In this document: in pieces, positions 14,484-61,156 of the stretch
How positions within the stretch are numbered: the first letter of the stretch is position 1
How the letters are laid out: each line of letters opens with the position of its first letter
Source of the DNA: Desulfobacterales bacterium
Lineage (GTDB): Bacteria > Desulfobacterota > UBA8473
NCBI GenBank assembly: GCA_016209225.1
Contig: JACQWO010000025.1
Span: 14,548 to 78,547, forward strand
Length of the DNA stretch: 64,000 nt
Direction: 5' to 3'
Translations under genes and position numbers: made by a program
Notes under the pieces: generated by a model
Told to the model about the DNA's origin: nothing
Databases searched by the model: none
The model's input: the letters and a program-made list of their open reading frames with translations, nothing else

Positions 14484-15455
14484 ATGCCACGCCAAGCCCG
14501 CTTAGATATCCCCGGCGCCCTGCACCATATCATGGTACGGGGGATCGACAAATCAAACATCTTCCGCGATACTCAGGACAAAGCCCGGTTCCTTGAATGT
14601 CTCGGGCAGAACGTCCAGGACGCCAAATGTTCTGTTTACGCATGGGTGCTCATGGACAACCATGTTCATATACTGTTCCGGAGCGGACAAGGCGGCATCT
14701 CATCTGTCATGAGAAAGCTCCTTACCTGGTACGCCCAATACTTCAACCGCAGGCACGGCCGAAAAGGACATCTCTTTGAAAACCGTTATAAATCCATCCT
14801 GTGCGACGAAGATAATTACCTCCTTGCCCTTGTCCGTTACATCCATCTCAACCCCGTTCGGGCAGAGATCATTCAGACCATGACAGAGATGGACAAATAC
14901 CCATGGAGCGGCCATCCAGCTATTATTGAAAAGGCAAAATACCCATGGATGGATACTGCAACGGTATTGGCGCAATTCGGAGGCATGAAAAGAAAAGCCA
15001 CTGCAGAATACCGGCGGTTTATGCAGGAAGGCATGAATCAGGGACATGAGCCCCAATATTCCGGTGGCGGGCTTGTACGGAGCCTCGGAGGGTGGTCCAA
15101 TGTCCTCTCTATGAGACGGAAAGGCCGGAAGGAAGAGACAGACGAGCGGATCCTTGGGAGTGGTGATTTCGTGCAGCAAGTAATAACGGAGGCAGAAGAC
15201 AAGTCGCTTCGGCAGATGAAGCTCAAAAGATCAGGATTGACGCTGATAAAAATCATCGAACAAGAATGCAAGAAAGGGCAGATCAGCCGGATAGAGCTGG
15301 AGAGCGGCAGTCGCCGGTCAAAGGTAAGCTGGACGCGTGGACAGATCGCCCGACGCGGCATTGAAGAGATCGGCCTCTCAGCGGCTGAGATTGCGCGACA
15401 TCTCGGCGTAGCCACGTCAAGCATAACGCGGGCGATTGCAAAGATGGAAGTCTGA
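14484..15455 (+). CDS. IS200-like Y1 (HUH) transposase domain fused to a DnaA domain-IV-like HTH; RayT/REP-associated tyrosine transposase-like
   Basis: The N-terminus PGALHHIMVRG...AWVLMDNHVHIL (HuH motif)...RYIHLNPVRA matches the Y1 transposase fold. The C-terminus GLSAAEIARHLGVATSSITRAI resembles the DnaA C-terminal HTH. It is the first gene of the GC-rich island. Confidence 0.7.
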   Translation: MPRQARLDIPGALHHIMVRGIDKSNIFRDTQDKARFLECLGQNVQDAKCSVYAWVLMDNHVHILFRSGQGGISSVMRKLLTWYAQYFNRRHGRKGHLFENRYKSILCDEDNYLLALVRYIHLNPVRAEIIQTMTEMDKYPWSGHPAIIEKAKYPWMDTATVLAQFGGMKRKATAEYRRFMQEGMNQGHEPQYSGGGLVRSLGGWSNVLSMRRKGRKEETDERILGSGDFVQQVITEAEDKSLRQMKLKRSGLTLIKIIEQECKKGQISRIELESGSRRSKVSWTRGQIARRGIEEIGLSAAEIARHLGVATSSITRAIAKMEV

Positions 15456-21322: not shown

Positions 21323-21571
21323 ATGGTTAAAACCGGATACAAATTCACCGAATACTTTGAGAAAGAGGTTCTGAGAAAACGGCCGTATATAAAAAAAGAA
21401 TGGTGTGTCAGCGTGATAGAACGACCGCTCAGAGTTGAGCCGCAAGAACATAACCGCTTCCGGTTCTGGGGTGTGATTCCAGAACTTGAGGGCCGAATAA
21501 TACGAGTTATTACGTTAAGCGACAAGAAAACCATTCACAATGCATTTCCAGATAGGGGGTTCAAATCATGA
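21323..21571 (+). CDS. DUF4258-family small toxin-like protein
   Basis: 82 aa, overlapping the DUF2283 gene by 4 nt. The family assignment rests on size and gene arrangement. Confidence 0.45.
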   Translation: MVKTGYKFTEYFEKEVLRKRPYIKKEWCVSVIERPLRVEPQEHNRFRFWGVIPELEGRIIRVITLSDKKTIHNAFPDRGFKS

Positions 21572-21783
21572 AATTAAACTACTATCCGGAGACCGATTCT
21601 CTATATATAGACCTATCAGAAAAATCAAGTGTAGAGAGTCGCGAGATTTCCGAAGGTGTTGTCCTTGACTATGATGCAGAAGGTATTCTGGTGGGTATCG
21701 ATATCGACAATGCCAGCACAAAAGTCCAGCTAAAAGAGTTAAGCCTTCGAAAACTGCCAGCAGATATAAAGGCAGTGGCATAG
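21568..21783 (+). CDS. DUF2283-family protein (antitoxin-like partner)
   Basis: MKLNYYPETDSLYIDL...GVVLDYDAEGILVGIDIDNAS is the canonical DUF2283 signature. Confidence 0.6.
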   Translation: MKLNYYPETDSLYIDLSEKSSVESREISEGVVLDYDAEGILVGIDIDNASTKVQLKELSLRKLPADIKAVA

Positions 21784-21829
21784 CCAATCAATCCAGCGAA
21801 TCGGCCTTAAATCCGGCCTCCCGCTGATT

Positions 21830-21925
21830 GCTTCGTTTCCCCCCTCGCTCCGCTCGGGGGGAATGCGGCGCTGAGCGGTTGTGCCTGCCCTCCGCTTCGC
21901 TCCGGGAGAACCAGGCACAGGAGAC
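21830..21925 (-). repeat. REP-like structured element, 5'-truncated copy in inverted orientation
   Basis: The reverse complement equals the right two-thirds of the 125-bp unit: GTCTCCTGTGCCTGGTTCTCCCGGAGCGAAGCGGAGGGCAGGCACAACCGCTCAGCGCCGCATTCCCCCCGAGCGGAGCGAGGGGGGAA. Confidence 0.6.
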
Positions 21926-21929
21926 AAAG

Positions 21930-22304
21930 ATGAAAGTTTCGGAACTGTTCGATCCTGCCATCAAGGGAAAGAAATCGGGAACGGAACGGCATCACCTTTT
22001 CCCCAAGAATTATCTGAAGAAAATGAATATAACCGAAATCCGCGATACGAATCAGATCGCCAACTATGCCTTAGTCGAATGGTCCGATAATATCGAAATC
22101 TCCGACAGCTCGCCTGAAGAGTACTTGCCGCAGTATATTGACCGCTTCAGCCTGGATGAACTGAAAGACATGTACTACTGGCACGCTCTGTCGGATGGTT
22201 GGGAAAACATGGCCTATGAGAAATTTCTTAAAACCCGTCGAAATGGGATGGCAAAGGTAATTCGTGACGGATTCCAGAAGTTATGCGACTTGTCCGATCA
22301 ATGA
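21930..22304 (+). CDS. Stand-alone DUF1524-like (GmrSD C-terminal HNH-type nuclease) domain protein, probably a truncated remnant
   Basis: ERHHLFPKNYL...IANYALVEWSDNIEIS resembles the DUF1524 H..P and N motifs. No DUF262 half is present. The RBS AGGAGA and ATG sit immediately after the REP-like fragment. Confidence 0.4.
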   Translation: MKVSELFDPAIKGKKSGTERHHLFPKNYLKKMNITEIRDTNQIANYALVEWSDNIEISDSSPEEYLPQYIDRFSLDELKDMYYWHALSDGWENMAYEKFLKTRRNGMAKVIRDGFQKLCDLSDQ

Positions 22305-22419
22305 GGAGGTAAAACATGGAAACCAAGACGTACTTGGGGCCGTTGTTCCTATTTGATCTTTTTCTTGTGTGAGAGGTGGCATATACGAACGCAGAGATCG
22401 GAGAGATTTTTGGAAATAA

Positions 22420-22824
22420 TCAAAACTTTGTAAAGGCTCCTGATATGCTTATCTCTTTCTGTATTCCGTATTTCTCCATCCTCCGACGGAGGCTGTTTCT
22501 GTTTATACCCAGTAATGTAGCTGCTTTAACCTGATTCCCTTTTGTTTTTTCCAGTGCCTTTATTACCAGTATCTTTTCCAGATAAGAGAACGTGTCTAAA
22601 TCTTCTTTTGTCGAGAGGGAAGATGCCACTTTGAGAAGTCTATCTAAAATCCCATTCAACCCATAGTCCAGATTCTCCTCTTCCCTTAAGGAATAAACTC
22701 CGTTCGTATCCTCCTCAAAAGAGATGTCTTCAGGGATGATAATATTACTCTTACATCTAATAATAGCCTTCTTGACAACATTCTCAAGCTCTCTGACATT
22801 GCCGGGCCAATGATAACCCATCAA
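22420..22824 (-). pseudogene. Sigma54-dependent activator, C-terminal fragment (134 aa): end of the AAA+ domain plus the Fis-type HTH
   Basis: About 80% identical to the C-terminus of the intact regulator gene 27840-29285 (YHWPGNVRELENVVKKAIIRCKS...LLGINRNSLRRRMEKYG). There is no receiver or Walker region, so I call it a remnant. Confidence 0.6.
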
Positions 22825-27746: not shown

Positions 27747-27839
27747 ATGCCCCGACAAGCAAGATTGGATGCGCAGGGAACCCTTCACCATGTGATGATC
27801 CGCGGTATTGAGAGAGGCACGATATTTTGTAATAAATAA
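27747..27839 (+). pseudogene. Y1/IS200-like transposase-like gene, N-terminal 30-aa remnant
   Basis: MPRQARLDAQGTLHHVMIRGIERGTIFCNK*. The first 20 aa are homologous to the N-terminus of the 14484 gene. The stop abuts the stop codon of the sigma54 regulator. Confidence 0.5.
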
Positions 27840-29285
27840 TCAAAACTTTGTGAAAGCTCCTAATATGCTTATCTCTTTCTGTACTCCGTATTTCTCCATC
27901 CTCCTACGGAGACTGTTCCTGTTTATACCCAAAAGCTTTGCTGCCTTCACCTGATTGCCTTTTGTTCTCATAAGCGCCTTTATTACAAGCATTTTCTCCA
28001 GAAATGAGAACACATCCTTATCCCCGGTTAGCGATAAGGGGATTTCTTCAAGAAGTCTATCTAAGATTCCATTCAACCCTGAAACCAGCCCCCCTTCTTT
28101 TTCCAGGGTATGAGCCCTATTTGTTTCCTCCTCAAAAGAGAGGTCTTCCTGGACAATGACTTCCGACTTACATCTAATAATAGCCTTCTTGACAACATTC
28201 TCAAGCTCTCTGACATTGCCGGGCCAATGATAACCCATCAATACCTTGATCGCCGATGGAGCAATATCTTTTATTTCTTTATTCAACTCCGGGCTTGACT
28301 TTTTTATGAAATACCTCACTAAATCCGGTATGTCGCCCTTCCTTTCCCTTAAGGGGGGGAGGTAAATAGAGACTACGTTCAAACGGTAATAGAGGTCTTC
28401 CCTGAACCTTCCCTCAGCGACTTCCTTTCTCAGATCCTTATTGGTGGCGGCTATTACCCTGATGTCAACCTTTATTGTTTCATTTCCTCCCAATCTTTCA
28501 AACTCCATCTCCTGTAATACACGAAGCATCTTGGCTTGAAGAAGAAGGGACATGTCCCCTATTTCATCCAAAAGTATGGTGCCCCCACTTAACTGTTCAA
28601 GCTTCCCGATCTTTCTTAGCCGGGCGTCGGTAAATGCCCCTTTTTCATAACCAAAAAGCTCCGACTCCAGTAGATTGTCGGGTATGGCAGCACAGTTTAT
28701 TGCCATGAAGGGTTTGTCCCTTCTTGTGCTGTGTTTATATATAGCCCTGGCAACCAGCTCTTTTCCAGTGCCACTTTCTCCAGTTAAAAGAACCGTTATA
28801 TCTTTCCCGGCCACCTGCCCTATGTACTTATATACCTTCTGCATTTCAGGCGAGTTTCCAACCATGATGTCCCCGTTTAGTTCCCCCTCTTGGGAAGGGG
28901 ACAGGGCAACCTTTCTCTTCATCATCTCTGTTACGGATAAGGCGCTGGATATGGTTGCCTTCATCCAATCGATATCAAAGGGTTTCAGGGTGTAGTCGTA
29001 TGCTCCTAACCTCATGGCCTCCACCGCGGTTTCCATAGTTCCATACGCCGTCATAATTATAATATGGAGTTTGGGATCTATATTCTTGATTTTTCTCAGG
29101 GTGGTGATTCCATCTATCCCGGGCATCCTGATATCCATTATTACCAGGTCTGGGGTATCCCTGCTGATGATGTCTACGGCCTCTTCTCCGGACGAGGCAG
29201 AAAGGACAACATAACTCTTGGAGAAGACCTTTTTAAAAGAGTAATGAACATTGGGCTCATCATCAACGATCAGTATCTTTTTCAT
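27840..29285 (-). CDS. Sigma54-dependent Fis-family response regulator (NtrC-like)
   Basis: Receiver domain (DDEPNV...DLVIMDIRMPGIDG). AAA+ sigma54-interaction domain with Walker A GESGTGKE and a GAFTDA variant of GAFTGA. C-terminal Fis HTH. Confidence 0.85.
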   Translation of the reverse strand: MKKILIVDDEPNVHYSFKKVFSKSYVVLSASSGEEAVDIISRDTPDLVIMDIRMPGIDGITTLRKIKNIDPKLHIIIMTAYGTMETAVEAMRLGAYDYTLKPFDIDWMKATISSALSVTEMMKRKVALSPSQEGELNGDIMVGNSPEMQKVYKYIGQVAGKDITVLLTGESGTGKELVARAIYKHSTRRDKPFMAINCAAIPDNLLESELFGYEKGAFTDARLRKIGKLEQLSGGTILLDEIGDMSLLLQAKMLRVLQEMEFERLGGNETIKVDIRVIAATNKDLRKEVAEGRFREDLYYRLNVVSIYLPPLRERKGDIPDLVRYFIKKSSPELNKEIKDIAPSAIKVLMGYHWPGNVRELENVVKKAIIRCKSEVIVQEDLSFEEETNRAHTLEKEGGLVSGLNGILDRLLEEIPLSLTGDKDVFSFLEKMLVIKALMRTKGNQVKAAKLLGINRNSLRRRMEKYGVQKEISILGAFTKF

Positions 29286-43971: not shown

Positions 43972-44334
43972 CTATGTACCTTGCAGCAACCGGAAGATAG
44001 GTTTCATCCAATAGGGCATGATGAAAACCTCCCCTGCCAAAGATAACCGCCATCCCTTGAGAAAGTTTATGTATCGGGTATATCGGTGTGCCTCTCCAAT
44101 TGCCCTTCTCAAGTCATCTTCCGAAGCCGGAATGGCAATAAGATGAACGTGGTTGGGCATCAGGCAGTAAGCCCATATCTCCACATTACACCGTTTGCAC
44201 CATTCAGACATGAGGGCTATATATTCCCTGTAATCTTCCTCTCTGAAAAAGGTCCGCTGTCTTCGATTGCCACGTTGTGTTATATGGTGGGGAAGCCCAG
44301 GTGAAACTACACGACCTATTCTCGCCATAGTCAA
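43972..44334 (-). CDS. IS200-like Y1 (HUH) transposase, short stand-alone form (RayT-like)
   Basis: PGLPHHITQRGNRRQ...AYCLMPNHVHLI...HRYTRYIN. It lacks the DnaA-like tail. About 350 nt from REP-like copy A. Confidence 0.6.
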   Translation of the reverse strand: MTMARIGRVVSPGLPHHITQRGNRRQRTFFREEDYREYIALMSEWCKRCNVEIWAYCLMPNHVHLIAIPASEDDLRRAIGEAHRYTRYINFLKGWRLSLAGEVFIMPYWMKPIFRLLQGT

Positions 44335-44442: not shown

Positions 44443-44652
44443 TTACGAAGTTTTTTTCGGTTGATTATCCGACTTCTTTTTATCCTTTTGATCCTGTTTG
44501 CTTTTTTTCTGTTTTTGACTCTTGTCCTTATCCTTCTTTCCGCCTTTGTCTCCCATTGTGCACTCCTTTCCTTTTATCAATCCCGTTCTTGCCGCAAAGG
44601 GCGCTCTGTCGTAAGTTATAGCTTTTCGTGTCTTCATTGACCTTTCGGTCAA
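44443..44652 (-). CDS. Small hypothetical protein with an extremely Lys-rich tail
   Basis: TTG start. GDKGGKKDKDKSQKQKKSKQDQKDKKKSDNQPKK. Low-complexity; coding status uncertain. Confidence 0.25.
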   Translation of the reverse strand: MTERSMKTRKAITYDRAPFAARTGLIKGKECTMGDKGGKKDKDKSQKQKKSKQDQKDKKKSDNQPKKTS

Positions 44653-44688
44653 TTATACTACACACTGAAATAATGTTTTATAATGTAT

Positions 44689-44800
44689 AATGCGGCGCTG
44701 AGCGGTGTCCCGAAGGGACATCCGTCTCCTGTGCCTGGTTCTCCCTGAGAGAAGCGGAGGGCAGGCACAACCGCTCAGCGCCGCATTCCCCCTGAGGGTT
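44689..44800 (+). repeat. REP-like structured element, copy A
   Basis: AATGCGGCGCTGAGCGGTGTCCCGAAGGGACATCCGTCTCCTGTGCCTGGTTCTCCC...GAGGGCAGGCACAACCGCTCAGCGCCGCATT, with a variant 3' hairpin. Confidence 0.6.
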
Positions 44801-44874
44801 GAGCCGCCGAGTTTACGAGGTAGGCTCCACCCTCTTGTTGGGCCGGAGCGCTAGCGATCGGCTGTATTGATTTG

Positions 44875-45048
44875 TTATGCCAATTCTTTTATTATATGCT
44901 TTGCAAGGTTCTCATCAATCTCGCCATGTCTTGGAACAGGTTGTTTCTTGCCTGTTTTAGGATTCGCATAAAGATCGTGGCGGCCGCCGTGCCTCACAAG
45001 CACACACCCTACAGACAATATTCTCTTCAGCAATTCTTTTCTTTTCAT
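44875..45048 (-). CDS. hicA: HicA-family mRNA interferase toxin (57 aa)
   Basis: Hand translation of the minus strand gives MKRKELLKRILSVGCVLVRHGGRHDLYANPKTGKKQPVPRHGEIDENLAKHIIKELA. It forms an ATGA start/stop overlap with hicB. It is not in the ORF track because it is under 60 aa. Coordinates may be off by about 1 nt. Confidence 0.65.
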   Translation of the reverse strand: MKRKELLKRILSVGCVLVRHGGRHDLYANPKTGKKQPVPRHGEIDENLAKHIIKELA

Positions 45049-45242
45049 ACATTTATGGCAAGTTCTTTGATTTCGTGCTGCTCCGGGACATCTTCCAGTG
45101 TCATCATCGCGTAAGCGTCCTTCATGTTATCTTCAAGTTCTTCCAACGTCCCGCCTTGCGTCATTATTTCTGGATGTTCTAGGAGTTTCCCCACCCAAAA
45201 CTTTTCGCCTTTCCAATAGATCATTTTTAGCTTTGTTTCCAT
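45045..45242 (-). CDS. hicB: HicB-family antitoxin, short form
   Basis: KMIYWKGEKFWVGKLLEHPEIMTQGGTLEELEDNMKDAYAMM matches the HicB N-domain. Confidence 0.6.
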   Translation of the reverse strand: METKLKMIYWKGEKFWVGKLLEHPEIMTQGGTLEELEDNMKDAYAMMTLEDVPEQHEIKELAINV

Positions 45243-45529
45243 GCTGCAACCTCCTAAGCTTGGTATTTCTTTATCAATATAATATCACATGAAGTGAGGA
45301 TAGGAAATATCTTTTATAATCCTTGCCCAACGAGTCTGTAGAAAAAGTCCTTTTACAGGGGAGTAGTTTCCTGACCAAGACCGATTTTTTTTAGACTTTT
45401 AACTTAGCATAGACGATGCATTTTCCCGGCGGAGCATTATTGCCCTTCCTTCAATCTGTGAAGATATCGAGTGGCGTTGCTTTGTTAAGCTTCATCCCTG
45501 CTTTATCCGGTCTTCATCCTTTGGGTATA

Positions 45530-46137
45530 TCAGGCAAATCCCAAACCATACCTGTGTATCTTCTTCACATTGTGAATAATACAGAACAGATTCCACTGCA
45601 TGTTTACCTTTTTTTTACCCCGCAATGTGAAACGGTTAAGGCCAATAGCTGATGCGATATGGTCAAACGGCGGCTCACTTATTGCCGGCCGCATCCCGTA
45701 AAGAACTCTACCTGAAGCAGAGTCAATCTTCCGCTTCATTCTCTCTGTAAAGGTAATCTCGCCTTTTGCCGACCTTCCCACAAAATAAGCAACCTGCCGT
45801 ATCTCTGTACGCTCCGGATACCGCAGGCATTGGGAACGAAGGGCACATGGAAGGCAGACCGACTTGGGTCCCTTAAACTTATATGCCCGAAAGTTCTTCA
45901 CTACAACGTTGGCGCCGCTGCGGTAGAGTCGTTTACCTGCCGGGCATAAACAATAACGCAACTCTTTGTCAAAGATGAAGTCTTTGGTACTAAAAAGTGG
46001 AGTGTGTCCCTTCCGACCAGCTCGTTATCGATGAGATGATTCAGAGAGTATTCAAAGGTGCAGGGAAGGATTTGTTTCTCGAAATGGATGGGGATGAATT
46101 TACCTTGTTCGTATGAATAGGGTTTGTAACGTGCCAT
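45530..46137 (-). pseudogene. IS1182-family transposase remnant (N- and C-terminal pieces, frameshifted and internally deleted)
   Basis: The N-terminal piece MARYKPYSYEQGKFIPIHFEKQILPCTFEY and the C-terminal piece ...FTLRGKKKVNMQWNLFCIIHNVKKIHRYGLGFA match IS1182 transposase ends. Total coding is about 220 aa versus about 450 expected. Confidence 0.6.
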
Positions 46138-46253
46138 GCAACACCTCGGTAAATGGTTAAGCGGTTACCAACTCCAATGTTGCAGCAATATTACAATAAA
46201 ATGCTCATGGTTACAATCATTTTACCTCTATATCACCCTTTTCCTACAGATTC

Positions 46254-46380
46254 AACGCGGCGCTGAGCGGTGTCCCGAAGGGACATCCGTCTTCCTGTGC
46301 CTGGTTCTCCCGGAGCGAAGCGGAGGGCAGGCACAACCGCTCAGCGCCGCGTTCCCCCTGAGCGAAGCGAAGGGGGAATG
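46254..46380 (+). repeat. REP-like structured element, copy B
   Basis: AACGCGGCGCTGAGCGGTGTCCCGAAGGGACATCCGTCTTCCTGTGCCTGG...CAGGCACAACCGCTCAGCGCCGCGTTCCCCCTGAGCGAAGCGAAGGGGGAA. Confidence 0.65.
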
Positions 46381-46447
46381 ATAAAGTCACCTGCCAGTGT
46401 GAAGCGTAGCGAAACACCGGTCAGGTGGACTGACAGGTTGGGCGGGC

Positions 46448-46777
46448 TCAAAATGCAAATAGCCGTTGTAAGAGAGAAATAACCTCCAACTGAGTTTCTG
46501 AATCAATAGAACCAAGCTTTTTTATGAGTCGTGTTTTATCTATTGTTCGAATCTGATCCAAGACGATTTGCCCTTTTTTCTTTTTAAATTTGCATGATAT
46601 CCTTGTGGGATAGTCCTTGCCGGCAGTAGTCATCGGGGCAACTATAACGGTGCGGATATGCCGGTTCATTTCATCTGGCGAAATAATCACGCAAGGTCGC
46701 GTTTTCTGTATTTCAGAACCAACAGTAGGATCAAGATTGATCAAATACACATCGAATCGATTCACTACCATTGCCAT
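46448..46777 (-). CDS. mazF: MazF/PemK-family endoribonuclease toxin
   Basis: FDVYLINLDPTVGSEIQKTRPCVIIS is the canonical PemK/MazF motif. Confidence 0.8.
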   Translation of the reverse strand: MAMVVNRFDVYLINLDPTVGSEIQKTRPCVIISPDEMNRHIRTVIVAPMTTAGKDYPTRISCKFKKKKGQIVLDQIRTIDKTRLIKKLGSIDSETQLEVISLLQRLFAF

Positions 46778-47019
46778 TCCTCTTCATCCCAGGAATTTGA
46801 AATATTATCGTTTCCGTCTATCAATGTGTCATGACCGTTTTGAGCCATTGTTCTAAAAGCATTATCCCAACCTGGCCTTGGATTTGAGATCGGGCGAATA
46901 ATGATTTGGTTTTTCTCTACTTCAAGCTCAACGTCCTCGATAATTCCTGTTTGCTCAAGTATAGGTTTTGGAATACGGACACCTTGGGAATTGCCAATTT
47001 TTACAACACGTACTCTCAT
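46765..47019 (-). CDS. mazE: MazE/AbrB-SpoVT-family antitoxin
   Basis: VKIGNSQGVRIPKPILEQ is a swapped-hairpin AbrB/MazE motif. Overlaps mazF by 13 nt. Confidence 0.7.
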   Translation of the reverse strand: MRVRVVKIGNSQGVRIPKPILEQTGIIEDVELEVEKNQIIIRPISNPRPGWDNAFRTMAQNGHDTLIDGNDNISNSWDEEEWQW

Positions 47020-47050
47020 GGTTTACCTCCTTGACTTGATAGGTGTCTAC

Positions 47051-47079
47051 ATTGTAATTACATCGGGATTGAATGTCAA
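47051..47079 (-). promoter_or_regulatory. Candidate sigma70 promoter for mazEF with an operator-like palindrome TGTAATTACA overlapping the -10
   Basis: Minus strand reads TTGACA, a 17-nt spacer, TACAAT, then RBS AGGAGG and ATG. Confidence 0.5.
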
Positions 47080-47360
47080 GGATTTATTGTATTTTTCCCC
47101 AGTTTTTGCCGCCCAACGGGCAGCGAGATGAGCCGCCCCCCAACCGACCAAGCGGAGTAATTACTCAAAAATTTCCTCTTTACCTAAAAGAAATGGAATT
47201 TCGTTACAATAATAGGCATCGTTCGATATTTATGTTTAGCCATTCGGAATTCTCCTTATATTATTGTTAAGTAAAAATTGTAAAAATGAAAGCAATGGGG
47301 ATCAAGTCTGCGTTTGACTCTTAATGGGAATATTCAAAGGTCAAACGTAGACCTGAGCCT

Positions 47361-47663
47361 TTATCCCACTTTGTGGAATTGCTCAAAGTGATGCACCCAA
47401 CATTCCTTAACATATTTTTCCATTCCATGTGGTATTAGGGCTCGTTCCCAAGCCTCACCACAAAATGCAACCAATGCGTCTTGATTTTCCCATGTGGTTA
47501 TTAAAACATACTCATCTTTATCTTGATCCATTACCTTACCAGCCGACAAGGAAACTAATCCTTTTTGTGCTTTTACTAACGGGATAGAAATTTGGTTAAA
47601 ATCATTTTCGAAATCTTCTTTCAATCCTTTATTAATCCTAACTCTAAAAATCCTTACTATCAT
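47361..47663 (-). CDS. Hypothetical protein, ABM (antibiotic biosynthesis monooxygenase / Dabb)-like fold
   Basis: 100 aa. EYVLITTWENQDALVAF is ABM-like. The N-terminus MIVRIFRVRI could alternatively be a displaced ParE C-terminal piece. Confidence 0.35.
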   Translation of the reverse strand: MIVRIFRVRINKGLKEDFENDFNQISIPLVKAQKGLVSLSAGKVMDQDKDEYVLITTWENQDALVAFCGEAWERALIPHGMEKYVKECWVHHFEQFHKVG

Positions 47664-47691
47664 TTAATGTCTCCAATCTTGATTGGTGAAT

Positions 47692-47856
47692 TCATCCTAT
47701 ATTTCCAATGAATGGAAAATCCTTAACACTTCTCGCTACATCAAGAATTTTCGTAACAACTGCACGTGCATAAAACTCAGAATCCCTTGTAATATAATCT
47801 GAAATTGATTCAATATCTTCAATGGCTTCTGGGGACCAGACTACTTTATAGGTCAT
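47692..47856 (-). pseudogene. RelE/ParE-family toxin, truncated at 54 aa
   Basis: MTYKVVWSPEAIEDIESISDYITRDSEFYARAVVTKILDVARSVKDFPFIGNIG* matches ParE/RelE N-terminal halves. The C-terminal catalytic half is missing. An 11-codon ORF follows (MNSPIKIGDIK), joined through ATGA overlaps. Confidence 0.45.
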
Positions 47857-48029
47857 CTGCTGAATCTCTTCTCTACTTCTTCTTGGCTCATCGTTCCCTC
47901 TTTCTCTGCCCTATCGATTCCACGTTGAATCTTCTCGATTACATATAGGTGGTATTGGATATCTTCAAACGTGCAACTATCTGGCAGCTTATCTATTAAT
48001 GATACGGCTTCTTCTTTCGCAGTGTTCAT
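47853..48029 (-). CDS. ParD/RelB-like antitoxin partner (58 aa)
   Basis: Hand-translated as MNTAKEEAVSLIDKLPDSCTFEDIQYHLYVIEKIQRGIDRAEKEGTMSQEEVEKRFSR. It forms an ATGA overlap with the toxin ORF. Confidence 0.5.
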   Translation of the reverse strand: MNTAKEEAVSLIDKLPDSCTFEDIQYHLYVIEKIQRGIDRAEKEGTMSQEEVEKRFSR

Positions 48030-48058
48030 ACTTGTCTCCTTTCTATGATTTTACACAT

Positions 48059-48184
48059 AATGCGGCGCTGAGCGGTGTCCCGAAGGGACATCCGTCTCCT
48101 GTGCCTGGTTCTCCCGGAGCGAAGCGGAGGGCAGGCACAACCGCTCAGCGCCGCATTCCCCCCGAGCGGAGCGAGGGGGGAATG
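48059..48184 (+). repeat. REP-like structured element, copy C (most complete consensus-like copy)
   Basis: AATGCGGCGCTGAGCGGTGTCCCGAAGGGACATCCGTCTCCTGTGCCTGGTTCTCCCGGAGCGAAGCGGAGGGCAGGCACAACCGCTCAGCGCCGCATTCCCCCCGAGCGGAGCGAGGGGGGAATG. The outer 18-bp inverted repeat is perfect. Inner hairpins: GTCCCgaaGGGAC and TGTGCCTG...CAGGCACA. A 3' hairpin follows: CCCCCC...GGGGGG. Confidence 0.65.
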
Positions 48185-48253
48185 TTTTGCATAACTGGCT
48201 GGCAATGGAGCACAGCGGAATTGCCAGCCCGAGTTGATGCGGTTGTTATGCTT

Positions 48254-49450
48254 TTATTTTAACAAGTTTCTAATTGCATTTCCCAGTTTCCGGATTCCAA
48301 TCTGAATGGTTCCTTCATCTACGCATGAGAAATTAAGTCGCAAAGTTCGTGTTCTCATCTTCTTGACATAAAAAGGATCACCCGGCACGAATACAACATT
48401 GTCTTTCACTGCCAGATCAAATAAATCAAGTGATGCTACATTTTGCGGTAATTCAGCCCATAAAAACATTCCACCCTCTGGTTTGGTATAAGTTACACTT
48501 GGGGGGAAATAATTTTGTATACTATTCAACATGGCCCGGCATTGATTCCCATATGCCTCTCTGATTCTGCTTATATGTTTATCAATATCATTATCTTTTA
48601 AGTACTGATAAATAATACTCTGCGTAAAATGGCTTGTGTGGAGGTCAGCTGCCTGTTTTGCAATAATAAGTTTCTCCATGATGTGTTTTGGAGTAACAAT
48701 CCACCCTAACCGGAATCCGGGAATAATAGTTTTGGAAAAAGAACCCAACAGTACAGTATTATCCGGTAATAAATCCTTGAAGGACTGTTTGCTTTCACCA
48801 GTAAATCGTAAATCACCATATGCATCATCTTCAATTAATATTATATTGGTTTCTTGGAGTATTTCCGAAACCTCAAGTCTGTTTTCTTGGGAATAGGAAA
48901 TGCCGGACGGATTTTGGAAATTTGGAACTGTATACATCAGTTTTGGTTTATGAGAGGATATTATTTTCCGCAGTCTCTGTGTATCCATTCCTTCTTCGGA
49001 GACCGGAACAGGGAAAAACTCCGGTCTGTATATTGAAAATGCCTGGATAGCTCCCAAATAGCCGGGTTCTTCTATTATCACACCATTGCCGTCGTTAAGA
49101 AGAATTTTTCCCAGAAGATCTAATCCTTGCTGAGAACCGCTTGTAATCAGTATGTTTTCTACAGGTATATCAAGATTTTTCGTTTGATGATACCGCTCTG
49201 CGATATATTCTCTCAATTTCAGATAACCTTCTGAATTGCTATATTGGAAAATATCCTTCCCATGCATACTAAATACCTTATTTGTCGCCTTCTTAATTTC
49301 CTCAGCGGGGAAAAGCTCTCTGTTGGGAAGTCCGCCAGCAAAAGAAATCACTGCAGGATCCAAAGCAACCTTGAGTATTTCACGAATGAATGAACGTGGA
49401 ACGTCCGTAATTCTATCAGAAAATATGCTATCCATATTATTTTCCTTCAT
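48254..49450 (-). CDS. PLP-dependent aminotransferase (class I/II; LysN/2-aminoadipate aminotransferase-like)
   Basis: DVPRSFIREILKV N-terminal motif and the SFSKT PLP-lysine region. Start set at MKENNMDS with RBS AGGAAAC. The track ORF extends into REP-like copy D. Confidence 0.8.
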   Translation of the reverse strand: MKENNMDSIFSDRITDVPRSFIREILKVALDPAVISFAGGLPNRELFPAEEIKKATNKVFSMHGKDIFQYSNSEGYLKLREYIAERYHQTKNLDIPVENILITSGSQQGLDLLGKILLNDGNGVIIEEPGYLGAIQAFSIYRPEFFPVPVSEEGMDTQRLRKIISSHKPKLMYTVPNFQNPSGISYSQENRLEVSEILQETNIILIEDDAYGDLRFTGESKQSFKDLLPDNTVLLGSFSKTIIPGFRLGWIVTPKHIMEKLIIAKQAADLHTSHFTQSIIYQYLKDNDIDKHISRIREAYGNQCRAMLNSIQNYFPPSVTYTKPEGGMFLWAELPQNVASLDLFDLAVKDNVVFVPGDPFYVKKMRTRTLRLNFSCVDEGTIQIGIRKLGNAIRNLLK

Positions 49451-49465
49451 GTTTCCTATTTGCAT

Positions 49466-49596
49466 AATGCGGCAGTTGAGCAGTGCCCGAAGGGCATCTG
49501 TCTCGAACTCCTGGTTCTCCCCGCAGCGGAGCGAAGGGGAAATCAGGAGTTCGCTGCTCAACTGCCGCATTCTCCCCGAGCGAAGCGAGGGGAGAA
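49466..49596 (+). repeat. REP-like structured element, copy D (divergent, with compensatory stem changes), plus an extra GC hairpin to about 49650
   Basis: AATGCGGCAGTTGAGCAGTGCCCGAAGGGCATCTGTCTCGAACTCCTGG...CAGGAGTTCGCTGCTCAACTGCCGCATTCTCCCCGAGCGAAGCGAGGGGAGAA. Every stem retains complementarity despite substitutions. Confidence 0.55.
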
Positions 49597-49787
49597 CGCC
49601 TGAATTAAGCCGCGCCGCGAAGCGGCGTCGGCTTGAATGAATTGTTAGGCCTGCCTGAGACAGGCCTTTCTGTTGATTGCACGGATAACCAGACCATAAG
49701 AAATGAATTCAGGCGCAATCACATCTTGACGAGCCACCAGCTGTTGCGCGGCACAGCCGTTGACGATCCGCCGGATGCGCCAACGCA

Positions 49788-50534
49788 TCACCGCGGCATC
49801 AGCGCGAACACACCCCAGCCCAGGTATTCACGCGTGTAAGCGGCGTAGCGCTCGGGTTCCGAGGTCAGTTTGGCTCGAACATCTTTCGCGAACTCGTCGT
49901 CAGGATTGGCTTCAAGCCATCGGCGCATGGTGAGCCATTTGGTCGCCTCGTATCTGTCCCAGCCGTCTTGGTCAGCCAGAACCATTTCAACGACGTCGTA
50001 GCCAAGGTGGCCGAAAGACGCGAGAAGTTCTGGAAGCATGAGAAAATCGGAGATTGAGTTGGCAAGACACCCCTTGGCAACATCTTCCGTCGGCGGTAAC
50101 TGCCGCCAGTAGGGCTCGCCGATGAGGATGATCCCTCCGGTGCGCAGGCTCCGCGTCAGAAGCTCGATAGTGCCGATGACTCCCCCGGCGATCCAAGTGG
50201 CACCGACACAGGCTGCCACACTGGCCTTCTCGTCAGAGACATAGCCGGAAGCATCGCCATGGATGAACTTGACTTGATCGGCGACGCCGAGTTCTACAGC
50301 ACGGAGTTTCGCTTGCTCGGTGAACAACTGGCTCATGTCGATGCCGGTGCCGATGACGCCGTGATCGCGTGCCCAGGTGCACAGCATCTCCCCCGAACCG
50401 CTGCCGAGGTCGAGCACTCGGGCCCCCGATTCCAGACGCAGCGCCGCGCCGAGAGTGGCGAGCTTTTCGGGTGTGATCGGGTTGTGGATGCGGTGAGCAC
50501 TTTCAGTGATGTTGAATATCCGTGGGATGTCCAT
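49788..50534 (-). CDS. Class I SAM-dependent methyltransferase (GC-rich, likely acquired)
   Basis: VLDLGSGSGEM is motif I. This single gene is about 60% GC, against about 45% background. Confidence 0.75.
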   Translation of the reverse strand: MDIPRIFNITESAHRIHNPITPEKLATLGAALRLESGARVLDLGSGSGEMLCTWARDHGVIGTGIDMSQLFTEQAKLRAVELGVADQVKFIHGDASGYVSDEKASVAACVGATWIAGGVIGTIELLTRSLRTGGIILIGEPYWRQLPPTEDVAKGCLANSISDFLMLPELLASFGHLGYDVVEMVLADQDGWDRYEATKWLTMRRWLEANPDDEFAKDVRAKLTSEPERYAAYTREYLGWGVFALMPR

Positions 50535-50642
50535 TGTGAAAAATTTCCTTACGGGTGTGAATAGATTCGGTCATGGCCTAACGATTTGAACTCACTGGTG
50601 GCGGGTAGCCATCCAGTGGAGTGATTGGTTGTGTGAGGTGTT

Positions 50643-51083
50643 TCATTTATGTTTAGCAACTTTAAGCAATTTCTCAATATTTGCAATAGCCATATCCGTA
50701 CATTCTTTTACTGTGTTGTTTCCCAAATAGGGGGAATATTTAAAAAGAAACTCTGTCGTCTCCTCTCCTTCATAATCATCTTGTGCATAATAGTTGCGCC
50801 ATGCTTGGTTAAATTCTCTTTTGCGGGGTTCTTCCAAAAAATGTCGGAAGGTAGTTGCGGCAGTCCTATGTTTATTGAAAGCATCGGTGAGCAATTTATG
50901 GGGGTCAACAGTTTTGTTGTAAGTGGGGTTTTCGAGGGTAGAGAGTTCAGAAGCAAAGGCTTCATGCAAGGTATTATAAGCGATATTAAAGCGTTCTTTG
51001 TCTTTATATTTTCTAGTGACGATGCTAGTGATCAATACACCAATCAAGACAGGAAAAATGCCGAGGAGGATTTTTTCAATCAT
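50643..51083 (-). CDS. Hypothetical membrane-anchored protein
   Basis: An N-terminal TM segment (ILLGIFPVLIGVLITSIV), then a soluble domain. Confidence 0.4.
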   Translation of the reverse strand: MIEKILLGIFPVLIGVLITSIVTRKYKDKERFNIAYNTLHEAFASELSTLENPTYNKTVDPHKLLTDAFNKHRTAATTFRHFLEEPRKREFNQAWRNYYAQDDYEGEETTEFLFKYSPYLGNNTVKECTDMAIANIEKLLKVAKHK

Positions 51084-51227
51084 ATGTTTTACCCCATTTG
51101 TGCATTTGTTACTATATGGCTGGTGGTAGGATTACCATTTTATTTATTATTCTTCACACAACGATGATTATACTGAACCGGTTTATTCCTTCGATTTATG
51201 CTTAACCATAGTATAGTTTAACCAAAG

Positions 51228-51339: not shown

Positions 51340-52335
51340 TTAGTATCGATCTGCGCTGCCCAGCACATTTTTGTTCTTTTCAATGATCATCTTCATAAGC
51401 TCATCGCGGGCAGGACCTAAGTATTTGCGCGGGTCAAATTCAGCCGGCTTTTCTTTGAATATTTTCCGGATCATGGCTGTAATAACCAAACGCCCATCGG
51501 AATCTATGTTGATCTTGCAGACAGCAGATCTTGCCGCCTTTCTCAACTGATCCTCGGGAATGCCAACAGCGTCTGCCAGAGCTCCACCATTACTATTGAT
51601 AAGGTCAACGTATTTGAGCAGGACGGAACTGGCTCCGTGCAAAACAATGGGGAAGCCGGGAATTCGCTTTTCGATTTCCTCAAGGATGTCAAAGCGCAGT
51701 GGCGGAGGAGTAAGGATGCATTCTTTGCTGAGGGTGCACTGCTCTGGCTTGAATTTATAAGCGCCATGAGAGGTGCCTATTGAAATTGCAAGAGAGTCAA
51801 CGCCGGTCTTCTTTACAAAGTCTTCAACCTCTTCAGGCTGAGTATAAGTAGACCTGGCTGCAGCTACGTCGTCTTCGATGCCTGCCAGTATACCGAGTTC
51901 TCCCTCAACAGTGACATCGTGCCTGTGGGAGTACTCGACGACCTTCCTGGTCAGTTCGACGTTTTCCTGATAGGACAGGTGGGAGCCGTCGATCATTATT
52001 GAAGAGAATCCGCTTTCAATACAGGAAACACAAAGTTCATAGCTGTCGCCATGGTCCAGGTGAAGAGCGATGGGAATACTGTAGCCAAGCTCACGGGCCA
52101 TTTCCACAGCGCCTTTTCCCATGTTGAGGAGAAGGGTGGCGTTAGCGTAATTGCGGGCGCCCTTAGAGACCTGAAGGATTACCGGGGATCTGGATTGACC
52201 ACACCCGTTGATAATGGCCTGAATCTGCTCCATATTGTTAAAGTTATAAGCAGGGACGGCATATCCGCCATCCATGGCTTTTTTGAACATTTCACGCGTG
52301 TTGACAAAGCCTAGTTCTTTATAGCTGATAGCCAT
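51340..52335 (-). CDS. fba: Fructose-bisphosphate aldolase, class II
   Basis: MAISYKELGFVNTREMFKKA...AYNFNNMEQIQAI and the metal-binding His regions are typical of class II FBA. Start set at MAIS with RBS GGAGG. The track ORF begins 19 codons upstream. Confidence 0.9.
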   Translation of the reverse strand: MAISYKELGFVNTREMFKKAMDGGYAVPAYNFNNMEQIQAIINGCGQSRSPVILQVSKGARNYANATLLLNMGKGAVEMARELGYSIPIALHLDHGDSYELCVSCIESGFSSIMIDGSHLSYQENVELTRKVVEYSHRHDVTVEGELGILAGIEDDVAAARSTYTQPEEVEDFVKKTGVDSLAISIGTSHGAYKFKPEQCTLSKECILTPPPLRFDILEEIEKRIPGFPIVLHGASSVLLKYVDLINSNGGALADAVGIPEDQLRKAARSAVCKINIDSDGRLVITAMIRKIFKEKPAEFDPRKYLGPARDELMKMIIEKNKNVLGSADRY

Positions 52336-52496
52336 GATAACCCTCCTCTCTTTTTTCTGCGTATTATCAAATAAATTTCTTAAAAAATACAATATAACAC
52401 CAAAAATATCAAGGAATTTTACCTGTTTCTGTCAAAAAATTTCCGCTACCAAAAGTTCCTTGACAAAAATGCAATCTATAAGATAAAACATAACTA

Positions 52497-60610: not shown

Positions 60611-60802
60611 ATGAAGGTGGTTATAGAAGTTGAAAACGAGGAGGAAATAAAGAGGGTTAGAGGGATTCTAAAAGGGGAACATATTACAGTAGTTAAGACA
60701 CGAAAAGAGAGAGATATGATATTGGAAGATATTTTCAATAAGTTTAATATAAGACTGCCTAAAGACTTCAAACTTGACAGGGAAGAATTACATGCAAGAT
60801 AG
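60611..60802 (+). CDS. VapB-like antitoxin (small; partner of the PIN gene)
   Basis: MKVVIEVENEEEIKRVRGILK..., with RBS GGAG. Its end overlaps the PIN gene start by 11 nt. An extended -10 (TGATATAAT) lies about 30 nt upstream. Confidence 0.45.
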   Translation: MKVVIEVENEEEIKRVRGILKGEHITVVKTRKERDMILEDIFNKFNIRLPKDFKLDREELHAR

Positions 60803-61156
60803 GGTCTTTATAGATACAAATGTTCTCATCTATTTTATAAGCGATGACATAAAAAAGAAGATAAAGGCAAAAGAAATACTATTTTTAAGAGGCGAACCTG
60901 TCATCAGTTCTCAAGTTATAAGTGAATTTGTTAATGCCTGCCTGACAAAATTATGGATGCTCTGGAATTTTCTTTAATAGAGGAAACCACCATAAAGAAA
61001 TCCCTTCAAATAAAGAAAACCTATAACTACTCCTATTGGGATTGCCTGATAATAGCCTCTGCCTTAGAAAACAACTGCACGATTTTATACACCGAAGATA
61101 TGCAGGATGGACATACCATTGAAAATAGATTAAAGATTGTTAATCCATTTGTTTAA
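60792..61156 (+). pseudogene. VapC PIN-domain toxin, split by a frameshift in an A4 run around 60950
   Basis: MQDRVFIDTNVLIYF...SSQVISEFVNACLTK shifts frame into ...SLIEETTIKK...YWDCLIIASALENNCTILYTEDMQDG. Together these give a complete roughly 121-aa PIN domain with the conserved D, E, D and D positions. Confidence 0.6.

Follow-up and report, generated by a model that had tools for sequence, protein, structure and literature searches.

We analysed a 64-kb stretch of DNA from a Desulfobacterales-like metagenome-assembled genome (MAG), in which a cluster of toxin–antitoxin (TA) genes is interspersed with copies of a structured 125-bp repeat. The stretch comprises positions 14,548–78,547 of contig JACQWO010000025.1 (assembly GCA_016209225.1); it is referred to here as the window, and its numbering and strands are used throughout. 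The open reading frames (ORFs) and remnants of the locus are, in the direction of transcription:

50643–51083, minus: 146-aa cassette ORF, taken from the ORF list, with no Pfam or PADLOC match
49788–50534, minus: methyltransferase cassette ORF, 248 aa (Pfam Methyltransf_31/25/11), cassette start TTAGGC at 50576–50581
48254–49450, minus: aminotransferase cassette ORF (Pfam Aminotran_1_2, E 1.8e-39), cassette start TTATGC right after repeat copy B
47853–48029, minus: 58-aa antitoxin, partner of ParE by gene linkage, cassette start TTATGTGTAAAATC...
47692–47856, minus: ParE truncated to 54 aa (ParE_toxin profile positions 1–48 of 89), deletion junction at 47702/47703
47660–47695, minus: 11-codon leader ORF, with ATGA overlaps with the truncated parE and the ABM ORF
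47361–47663, minus: ABM-domain cassette ORF, 100 aa (Pfam ABM, E 1.9e-8)
47051–47079, minus: mazEF promoter, TTGACA-17-TACAAT (11 of 12 matches), with the palindrome TGTAATTACA over the -10
46765–47019, minus: mazE (MazE_antitoxin, E 5.9e-9)
46448–46777, minus: mazF (PemK_toxin, E 1.1e-31)
45332–46253, minus: internally deleted IS1182-family element of about 922 bp, with both terminal inverted repeats GAGYCTGTAGRAAAA, bracketed by GTT...GTT
45045–45242, minus: hicB, a 65-aa ORF named after its homologues, with an ATGA overlap with hicA
44875–45048, minus: hicA (Pfam HicA_toxin PF07927, E 1.6e-10, 41.3 bits against a cutoff of 27)
43972–44334, minus: truncated RAYT (REP-associated tyrosine transposase; REP, repetitive extragenic palindrome) or IS200-like Y1 transposase ORF (Y1_Tnp, E 2.7e-8), at or just past the distal end of the array

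A preliminary description, made from the sequence alone, had seen here a TA island punctuated by REP-like elements. We consider it highly probable that the minus strand from about 44.4 to 51.2 kb is instead an integron-type gene cassette array of the CALIN type (cluster of attC sites lacking integron-integrases), each unit consisting of an ORF or operon plus the recombination site attC, the units being joined at G/TT (where the slash marks the crossover) and the 125–135-bp repeat being a gene-free mini-cassette. The TA cluster is the centre of this array of about 7 kb, and hicBA, mazEF and the antitoxin–truncated parE pair are its TA cassettes.

For the genes themselves much of the earlier account held. 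All the genes of the cluster do lie on the minus strand, and mazEF has what is expected of a type II TA system, namely a PemK/MazF toxin, an AbrB-fold MazE antitoxin, overlapping genes and a strong promoter of its own with an operator-like palindrome. The hicBA pair stood as far as the HicA match and the ATGA overlap are concerned, whereas the 65-aa HicB ORF had no Pfam or NCBIfam match and its best PDB match was the HicB-like TTHA1013 with an E-value of 0.84; the assignment comes from 1798 homologues that are named HicB-family antitoxin by NCBI and JGI. An antitoxin described as ParD-like could not be upheld, since the 58-aa protein matched nothing in Pfam, NCBIfam, PADLOC or a PDB profile search and the ParD family is not detectable; it is the ParE partner by conserved gene linkage only, copies of 98–100% identity being followed by a 102-aa ParE in more than ten contigs, and a 100%-identical copy is annotated in a Desulfobacterales MAG. 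PADLOC gave no match for any of the small proteins.

attC sites and cassette mobility

A CALIN is defined by at least two attC sites (R'' RYYYAAC, spacer, L box with extrahelical bases, variable tip and R' GTTRRRY) with no integrase nearby. A first heuristic scan for such sites performed no better than on shuffled sequence (25 matches against about 14), and a covariance model of our own, R2, was used instead, run with filters off and built from 19 aligned sites that all came from loci outside the window. These 19 sites have the canonical anatomy, with R'' ending in AAC, a 5-nt spacer and GTT at the 3' end, and their L box is 96% paired, with eight of ten pairs covarying and two conserved bulged bases. 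The sites and boundaries found in the window are:

51156–51162, minus: first cassette boundary, G/TTGTGT; GTTGTGT is the exact complement of the R'' ACACAAC of the attC at 50576–50634
50576–50634, minus: attC of the 146-aa cassette, R'' ACACAAC, R' GTTAGGC (R2 39.2 bits, E 6e-8), an imperfect hairpin with a bulge
49591–49650, minus: attC of the methyltransferase cassette, R'' GCCTAAC, R' being GTT fused to mini-cassette B (R2 57.1 bits, E 1e-12)
48177–48251, minus: attC of the aminotransferase cassette, R'' GCATAAC, R' GTTATGC at 48186–48192 (R2 19.5 bits, E 0.012), a hairpin
47111–47117, minus: R'-type box GTTGGGC, start of the mazEF cassette, complementary at 10 of 11 nt to the R'' region GCCCGCCCAAC of the mazEF attC
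46373–46443, minus: attC of the mazEF cassette, R'' GCCCAAC, R' being ATT fused to mini-cassette copy 2 (R2 41.7 bits, E 1.3e-8)
45325–45331, minus: start of the hicBA cassette, G/TTGGGC
44812–44880, minus: attC of the hicBA cassette, from reading the sequence; R'' GCATAAC overlaps the hicA stop and R' is deleted
21778–21841, plus: attC of the DUF2283 site (R2 31.2 bits)

Model R2 found five attC sites in the window (E-values from 1e-12 to 0.012), all on the gene strand and each directly 3' of an ORF, along with 62 attC sites in related loci. The hicBA site has a weak fold and is not called by R2; the first half of the leader of the adjoining mini-cassette is also deleted there. Cassette 5' ends were complementary to the R'' of their own attC, the pairs being TTAGGC/GCCTAAC, TTATGC/GCATAAC, TTGGGCGG/CCGCCCAAC and TTGTGT/ACACAAC.

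Independent mobility could be seen from the recurrence of the same cassettes in differing contexts, always joined at G/TT. The start of the antitoxin–ParE cassette, TTATGTGTAAAATCATAGAAAGGAGACA (TTATGTG...), was constant in seven contexts and its junction was always G/TT, while its 5' neighbour was the mini-cassette or one of four different canonical or other sites. Likewise, the methyltransferase cassette recurs in locus L011 (92% amino-acid identity) with different neighbours, there having a mini-cassette upstream and an attC that continues into an intact GTTAGGC, the reverse of the arrangement in the window. The ABM cassette is preceded in L069 by a different cassette, which carries HicA and its attC. 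In a related array, L062/L063, MazF, a 62-aa antitoxin, ParE, an aminotransferase and VapBC lie in one orientation; aminotransferase cassettes beside TA cassettes therefore recur. The end of L063 at positions 1–100 (public contig ERZ1742236 NODE_534) carries Illumina adapter sequence, AATGATACGGCGACCACCGAGATCTACAC...ACACGACGCTCTTCCGATCT, an assembly artefact.

The attC at 49591–49650 was 91% identical to a sequence found in more than 5000 plasmid records, which one annotated example places in an intI1 integron, with the psp cassette on one side and the aadA2 cassette on the other. From this position we conclude that the plasmid counterpart is an attC of class 1 integrons, so that one attC family is common to environmental anaerobes and clinical class 1 integrons. 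That attC sequences are shared among Nitrospirota, Desulfobacterota, Archaea and class 1 integrons was already known (PMC9668308).

Several points weigh against the array as we read it. A tblastn search with IntI1 gave no match in the 64-kb window, which also has no clear attI, so that a complete integron (intI, attI and the cassette promoter Pc) is not seen and present activity of the array has no support; its first unit adjoins a class II aldolase gene (51340–52392) and not an integrase. No attC was recognisable between the ABM ORF and mazE by a fold test or by R2, and 47105–47240 has no significant fold; nor was one recognisable 3' of the last small ORF, at 44443–44555. Finally, R2 was trained on sites from the same family of arrays. 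The boundaries of the island could not be drawn by synteny, the closest metagenomic relatives of the aldolase gene being at most 82% identical and sharing no common neighbours. The last small ORF (minus strand) encodes a lysine-rich protein of 37 aa (MGDKGGKKDKDKSQKQKK...), has a good ribosome-binding site (RBS) and lies 3' of mini-cassette copy 1; it has no family match.

Read as an array of integron cassettes, the TA cluster has nothing unusual about it. TA cassettes are known both from CALINs and from sedentary chromosomal integrons (Cury et al., 2016, PMC4889954; Richard et al., 2024, PMC13108822), and TA is the commonest annotated cassette function, archaeal integrons included (PMC9668308). 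As in those systems, the small cassettes here are co-oriented and each ends in an attC, there are several type II TA operons of which at least one has its own promoter, and the lack of a neighbouring integrase fits the definition of a CALIN. Unlike the Vibrio superintegron and its CALIN counterparts, the array is found in a Desulfobacterales-like MAG, is short, with about seven cassettes, and is visibly decaying; what it contributes is a CALIN of the Desulfobacterales type whose TA cassettes have decayed to different degrees. From established integron biology, the cassettes would have been assembled by IntI recombination at G/TT. By analogy with Vibrio chromosomal integrons, for which this has been demonstrated, the TA cassettes may penalise loss of the array or excessive excision by acting as addiction modules (PMC13108822; see also PMC9668308).

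GC skew on the plus strand is consistently negative over 28000–60000; should this be the mark of a lagging strand, the leading-strand template would contain the bottom strands of the attC sites. The same arrangement is found in the Vibrio superintegron, where it limits excision.

The repeat as a probable gene-free mini-cassette

A covariance model of the repeat, R1, was built from 34 copies. It found exactly five copies in the window, all in the same orientation relative to the flanking genes:

49460–49604, minus: mini-cassette copy B, a divergent variant (R1 149 bits), the cassette itself at 49466–49597, inner attC at 49462–49520
48053–48190, minus: mini-cassette copy 3, of the A type (R1 145.6 bits)
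46248–46386, minus: mini-cassette copy 2 (R1 142.8 bits)
44683–44811, minus: mini-cassette copy 1 (R1 105.4 bits), leader hairpin partly deleted
21829–21968, plus: fifth mini-cassette copy, 3' end cut short (R1 68.5 bits)

The preliminary description had placed one copy between each pair of modules. This is inexact: no copy lies between the ABM ORF and mazE, and the copies at 49460–49604 and 21829–21968 lie outside the span it covered. The first letters of the mini-cassette, TTCCCC or TTCTCC, adjoin the G of the upstream attC, and its last ones, ...GCCGCR, adjoin the TT with which the next cassette begins. In L007 and L006, which carry complete integrons, the mini-cassette occupies first place and its start adjoins the G of attI; the integrases there reach 375 and 362 bits with TIGR02249, for which the cutoff is 265. 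For the downstream side, a strict fold test for attC was too stringent and we used a 7-mer enrichment test in its place; the 6 nt after the element were complementary to an R'' 7-mer located further 3' in 22 of 48 copies, against 6.2 expected. Because of the exact start at the G, the end before TT and the R'' complementarity of the 6 nt that follow, the repeat fills a cassette slot. With a start after the G of attC or attI, an attC of its own at the end and no ORF, it has the make-up of a gene-less cassette. We conclude that the 125-bp repeat is not itself the separator between modules and that an additional cassette, one without a gene, has been inserted here at the crossover point of attC.

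That the repeat is strongly structured, as described earlier, was confirmed by folding z-scores of -6 to -8, well outside what chance would give. Copy 3 folds at -45 kcal/mol as DNA and -84 kcal/mol as RNA (z -6.7 and -7.9), compensatory changes were seen in 14 of 38 predicted pairs of the 34-copy alignment, and the stem changes of copy B are compensatory relative to the A-type copies. The canonical attC model R2 matched the 3' end of the repeat, with 25.9 bits (E 2e-4) in copy B and 26–38 bits in 12 copies elsewhere. The parts of this inner site are R'' GGAGAAC (the reverse complement of the invariant CCTGGTTCTCC), a 5-nt spacer CAGGA, L'' GTTcGAGaCAGaT with three bulges, a variable tip consisting of the CCCTTCGGG hairpin, L' ACTGCTCAAC, a spacer TGCCGC and R' RTT. 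In the 34-copy alignment the attC fold was 96.3% paired with seven doubly changed pairs, compared with 29–61% pairing in slid controls. Its G.T wobbles lie on the strand that corresponds to the bottom strand of cassettes, which is the strand recombined by integron integrases.

The 5' half of the repeat contains a hairpin, TTCCCCCC-GAGCGAAGCGA-GGGGGGAAY, and, for a second time but here without bulges, the R''-spacer-L'' segment. This duplicate pairs without any mismatch with L'-spacer-R' to give an outer stem of 18–22 bp, which explains the Y shape noted in the preliminary description. The repeat therefore has, in the predicted structures, two competing and co-varying folds, of which the Y-shaped one is calculated to be far more stable than the recombination-competent attC fold. 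Short forms of about 85–90 nt, with the first hairpin (13-nt loop) and the attC only, occur in L008, L019, L031 and L032, and the long form in the window looks like such a form in which about 45 nt have been duplicated internally. In its single-stranded linker the mini-cassette carries a nearly invariant ATG after GAGAC (48026–48091 and 49478–49495, minus strand; alignment columns 37–50). In copy 3 a short ORF from this ATG ends in an ATGA overlap with the start of the antitoxin; its frame differs between the A and B types.

A 21-base pattern of the repeat was found at 53 loci in 185,579 species genomes, all of them in MAGs and on at most seven contigs per MAG. The taxa include Nitrospirota/Thermodesulfovibrionales, Desulfobacterota, Nitrospinota, Omnitrophota, Armatimonadota and some archaeal bins, although the MAG taxonomy, above all that of the archaeal bins, may reflect binning errors. 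L027, from a Desulfobacteria MAG, carries an identical copy. The pattern was absent from the IMG/VR viral contigs and the PLSDB plasmids. With Rfam, only a tRNA was found in the whole window at the gathering threshold, and at E <= 5 on 44.6–49.75 kb the only match was GA-cis with 23 bits (gathering threshold 34.7), which we took as chance. A promoter scan of the repeat gave no sigma-70-like site.

We tentatively propose, as an explanation that we find possible rather than probable, that the repeat is a previously undescribed minimal integron cassette of 85–135 nt, made up of a recombination site and a masking sequence, which acts as a parasite or regulator of integrons. It would be spread by IntI across phyla and archaeal bins to attI and attC sites, would replace the R' of the upstream attC, and would switch between a locked and a competent fold, tuning its neighbours, TA cassettes included. 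Apart from this proposal, the mini-cassette most likely moves by integron-integrase recombination. Once inserted, it takes the place of the R' partner of the upstream attC, and one may speculate that this weakens the neighbouring attC, damps excision and stabilises the local order, and that the masking leader lowers folding of the attC. If IntI does move the mini-cassette, few known mobile DNA units would be as small, and it would provide a natural case of an attC that carries within it a competitor controlling its folding. It would thus offer a direct experimental handle on how attC folding governs cassette dynamics, and on whether integrons carry selfish passengers.

Some features of the repeat fit its reading as an integron cassette poorly. 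Its R boxes are GGAGAAC/GTTCYCC and not the canonical RYYYAAC/GTTRRRY, the outer stem carries AAT...ATT in 24 of 34 copies compared with the canonical AAC/GTT, and the outer stem has no unpaired spacer. The inner site is therefore to be called an attC variant and not a textbook site. In addition, about 15 of about 50 copies have no recognisable attC or attI upstream, and these often follow YTTGTT. Integron integrases are reported to accept secondary GWT sites for cassette insertion, and copies outside attC would be explained in this way.

Alternative explanations and known systems

RAYT or IS200-like Y1 genes, apparently as cassette cargo, lie near a mini-cassette in several other loci:

L012, 3495–3686
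L048, 819–1082
L009/L026, 5078–5347
L056, 1733–2173

The repeats could be palindromes of the REP or BIME (bacterial interspersed mosaic element) type, spread by a RAYT in the intergenic DNA of a TA-rich island and serving as RNA stabilisers or terminators, an explanation that we regard as improbable. The repeats are GC-rich, strongly folding and intergenic, as such elements are, and a truncated RAYT-like ORF lies 350 nt from copy 1; however, that ORF scores 35 bits against a cutoff of 80 and no inverted repeat copies flank it. The RAYT/Y1 genes listed above, within a few kilobases of the repeat, also speak against our reading and make another mobilising enzyme possible, although in these loci they occupy cassette positions like other cargo. 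Both ends of the repeat follow an RTT triplet, a pattern that IS200/IS605-like insertion 3' of a target would equally give; the repeat is nevertheless found exactly at attC and attI crossovers, including beside true integron integrases. At 125–135 nt, with a canonical attC-type half, it is three to five times longer than the 20–40 nt of a REP, and on the gene-sense strand the structure is not followed by a U-tract. The REP-like label of the preliminary description is thus replaced by that of a gene-free cassette at the attC crossover.

A cis-acting RNA leader (5' untranslated region) of the downstream cassette, controlling processing, stability or translation without being a mobile unit, seems to us very improbable. 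Such a role would suit the constant sense orientation of the repeat, 10–30 nt upstream of an RBS and start codon, the C(UUCG)G tetraloop on the gene-sense strand, the nearly invariant ATG of the linker and the ATGA overlap of the short ORF of copy 3 with the antitoxin start. Against this, the frame of the short ORF changes between the A and B types, the wobble pairs favour the bottom strand and no Rfam family was found at threshold; moreover, the same cassettes occur with and without the repeat, the junction being exactly G/TT, and the 5' end of the downstream cassette (TTNNNN) matches its own R'', so the cassette begins after the repeat. A non-autonomous mobile element with its own targeting of attC or GTT, independent of IntI and comparable to IS1111-attC elements or group IIC-attC introns, we hold to be very improbable. 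The repeat does occur at GTT in attC, in attI and at YTTGTT sites that are not attC, and, since the IS1182 remnant and a miniature inverted-repeat transposable element (MITE) in L055 also sit at GTT junctions, these junctions are hot spots for several kinds of element. Yet the repeat encodes nothing, and besides IntI and the RAYT-like genes no transposase or reverse transcriptase recurs beside it (tblastn with the window proteins); its attC-type site has the right place and orientation for an IntI substrate, and the secondary GWT insertion mentioned above would explain the copies outside attC. The ends are not intron-like, having no GUGYG 5' end, and there is no domain V. A fragment of a group II intron, considered separately, was ruled out by the sequence for lack of a GUGYG 5' end and of a domain V-like hairpin. 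IIC-attC introns differ from the repeat in orientation and insertion point.

Among known systems, gene-less cassettes have been described, some with promoter activity (Blanco et al., 2024, PMC11014356; oral metagenome, PMC6557892). The mini-cassette resembles them in being bounded by cassette junctions, in having no ORF and its own attC, and in lying between coding cassettes. It differs in that its cargo is about 13 nt (short form) or 75 nt (long form) and consists of a bulge-free inverted copy of its own attC half, in that the scan found no sigma-70-like promoter in it, and in that its sequence is conserved across several bacterial phyla and some archaeal bins, with several copies per array. 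With REP/BIME elements and their RAYTs it shares GC-rich intergenic palindromes and a nearby RAYT-like remnant, and it differs from them in length, in the absence of inverted pairs around the RAYT, in its location at attC/attI crossovers and in the attC-type site inside. The Vibrio cholerae repeats (VCRs) are highly conserved attC sites of about 123–126 nt in the superintegron. Like them, the repeat is a conserved, structured sequence of about 125 nt found between cassettes in one orientation; unlike them, it is an additional unit after an attC, branched and with two competing folds, in an array where the ordinary attC sites are diverse and 57–130 nt long. The DUF1874 motif is a multistem structure in consecutive intergenic regions that was proposed to be an unusual attC (Weinberg et al., 2017, PMC5737381). 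It too is a complex branched structure between consecutive ORFs that may act as single-stranded DNA; however, the repeat had no Rfam match even at E <= 5, and canonical attC sites are also present here. In the literature, of which our coverage was incomplete, we found no description of a conserved, self-masked cassette that is nearly attC only. Where REP-like repeats lie beside small co-oriented genes in MAGs, a search for attC sites is advisable before the name REP is given to them.

Decaying cassettes and other features of the window

The array is in decay, as can be seen from the truncated ParE, the IS1182 remnant at a GTT junction and the one attC without an R' box. A ParE-like toxin cut to 54 aa had been described correctly. 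A full-length ParE of about 90–100 aa is not present in the window, and the 102-aa form found elsewhere covers positions 1–88 of 89 of PF05016. Nucleotide homology to the full-length ParE locus L055 runs from the repeat through about codon 51 of ParE and ends at 47703, and the match to the native ABM cassette of L069 sets in at 47702, 8 nt past the start of the cassette. From this break and restart, the truncation is a deletion between two cassettes that fused about codon 51 of ParE to the ABM cassette and took away the 3' half of ParE, the attC of the ParE cassette and 8 nt from the beginning of the ABM cassette. The junction was 100% identical in independent assemblies (L066–L068), so the sequencing frameshift that had been considered earlier does not explain it, and it is not a simple stop either.

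The 11-codon ORF and the 100-aa ABM ORF are indeed chained by ATGA overlaps, as had been stated. The 11-codon sequence also lies upstream of ABM in L069, after the HicA cassette with its attC; it is native to the leader of the ABM cassette, and not a by-product of the truncation of ParE. This leader ORF, ATGA-coupled to ABM, resembles the ORF-11 that class 1 integrons have in attI1 and that raises the translation of a cassette downstream.

The IS1182 transposase, described earlier as frameshifted and internally deleted, was also confirmed as a remnant. A C-terminal piece at 45530–45961 matches DDE_Tnp_1_6 (E 4.5e-19) and positions 366–487 of 488 of the NCBIfam IS1182 profile, and an N-terminal piece lies at 45901–46137; of a family transposase of about 490 aa only these two pieces are left, and with NCBIfam the match reaches 67 bits where 270 are required. 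The remnant, with both of its inverted repeats kept, is placed at the junction before hicBA, and the GTTGGGC that follows it is complementary to the R'' of the mazEF attC. In L055 (3622–3725) a MITE of about 105 bp with the same ends is found at an equivalent GTT junction. The position of both elements at GTT junctions, flanked by GTT...GTT, suggests that this IS1182 lineage also prefers attC R' sites.

The RAYT-like ORF at 43972–44334 covers positions 2–83 of 146 of the NCBIfam REP_Tyr_transpos profile with 35 bits (cutoff 80), and it has a strong promoter of its own, TTGACA-17-TATTAT.

A separate, single cassette site lies on the other strand:

21323–21968, plus: 82-aa ORF, DUF2283 ORF, attC at 21778–21841 and mini-cassette at 21829–21968

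The preliminary description had listed two further TA pairs in the window, DUF4258/DUF2283 at this site and vapBC. DUF2283 was recovered (E 1.3e-17), whereas DUF4258 was not supported by the profile search of the 82-aa ORF and the PIN toxin of vapBC proved to be split in two. In the fifth mini-cassette copy the last 45 nt or so have given way to the beginning of an ORF that carries an HHLFP motif (site 21323–22304, plus strand); this motif suggests a putative DUF1524/GmrSD-type C-terminus. Two direct repeats at 22414–22824 and 27834–28241, of 178 and 196 nt, are 80–84% identical, lie 5.4 kb apart and are unrelated to the mini-cassette. The PIN (VapC) toxin, at 60774–61156 on the plus strand, consists of two 67-aa ORFs that cover positions 1–45 and 66–111 of the PIN profile, and is a second decayed toxin of the window.

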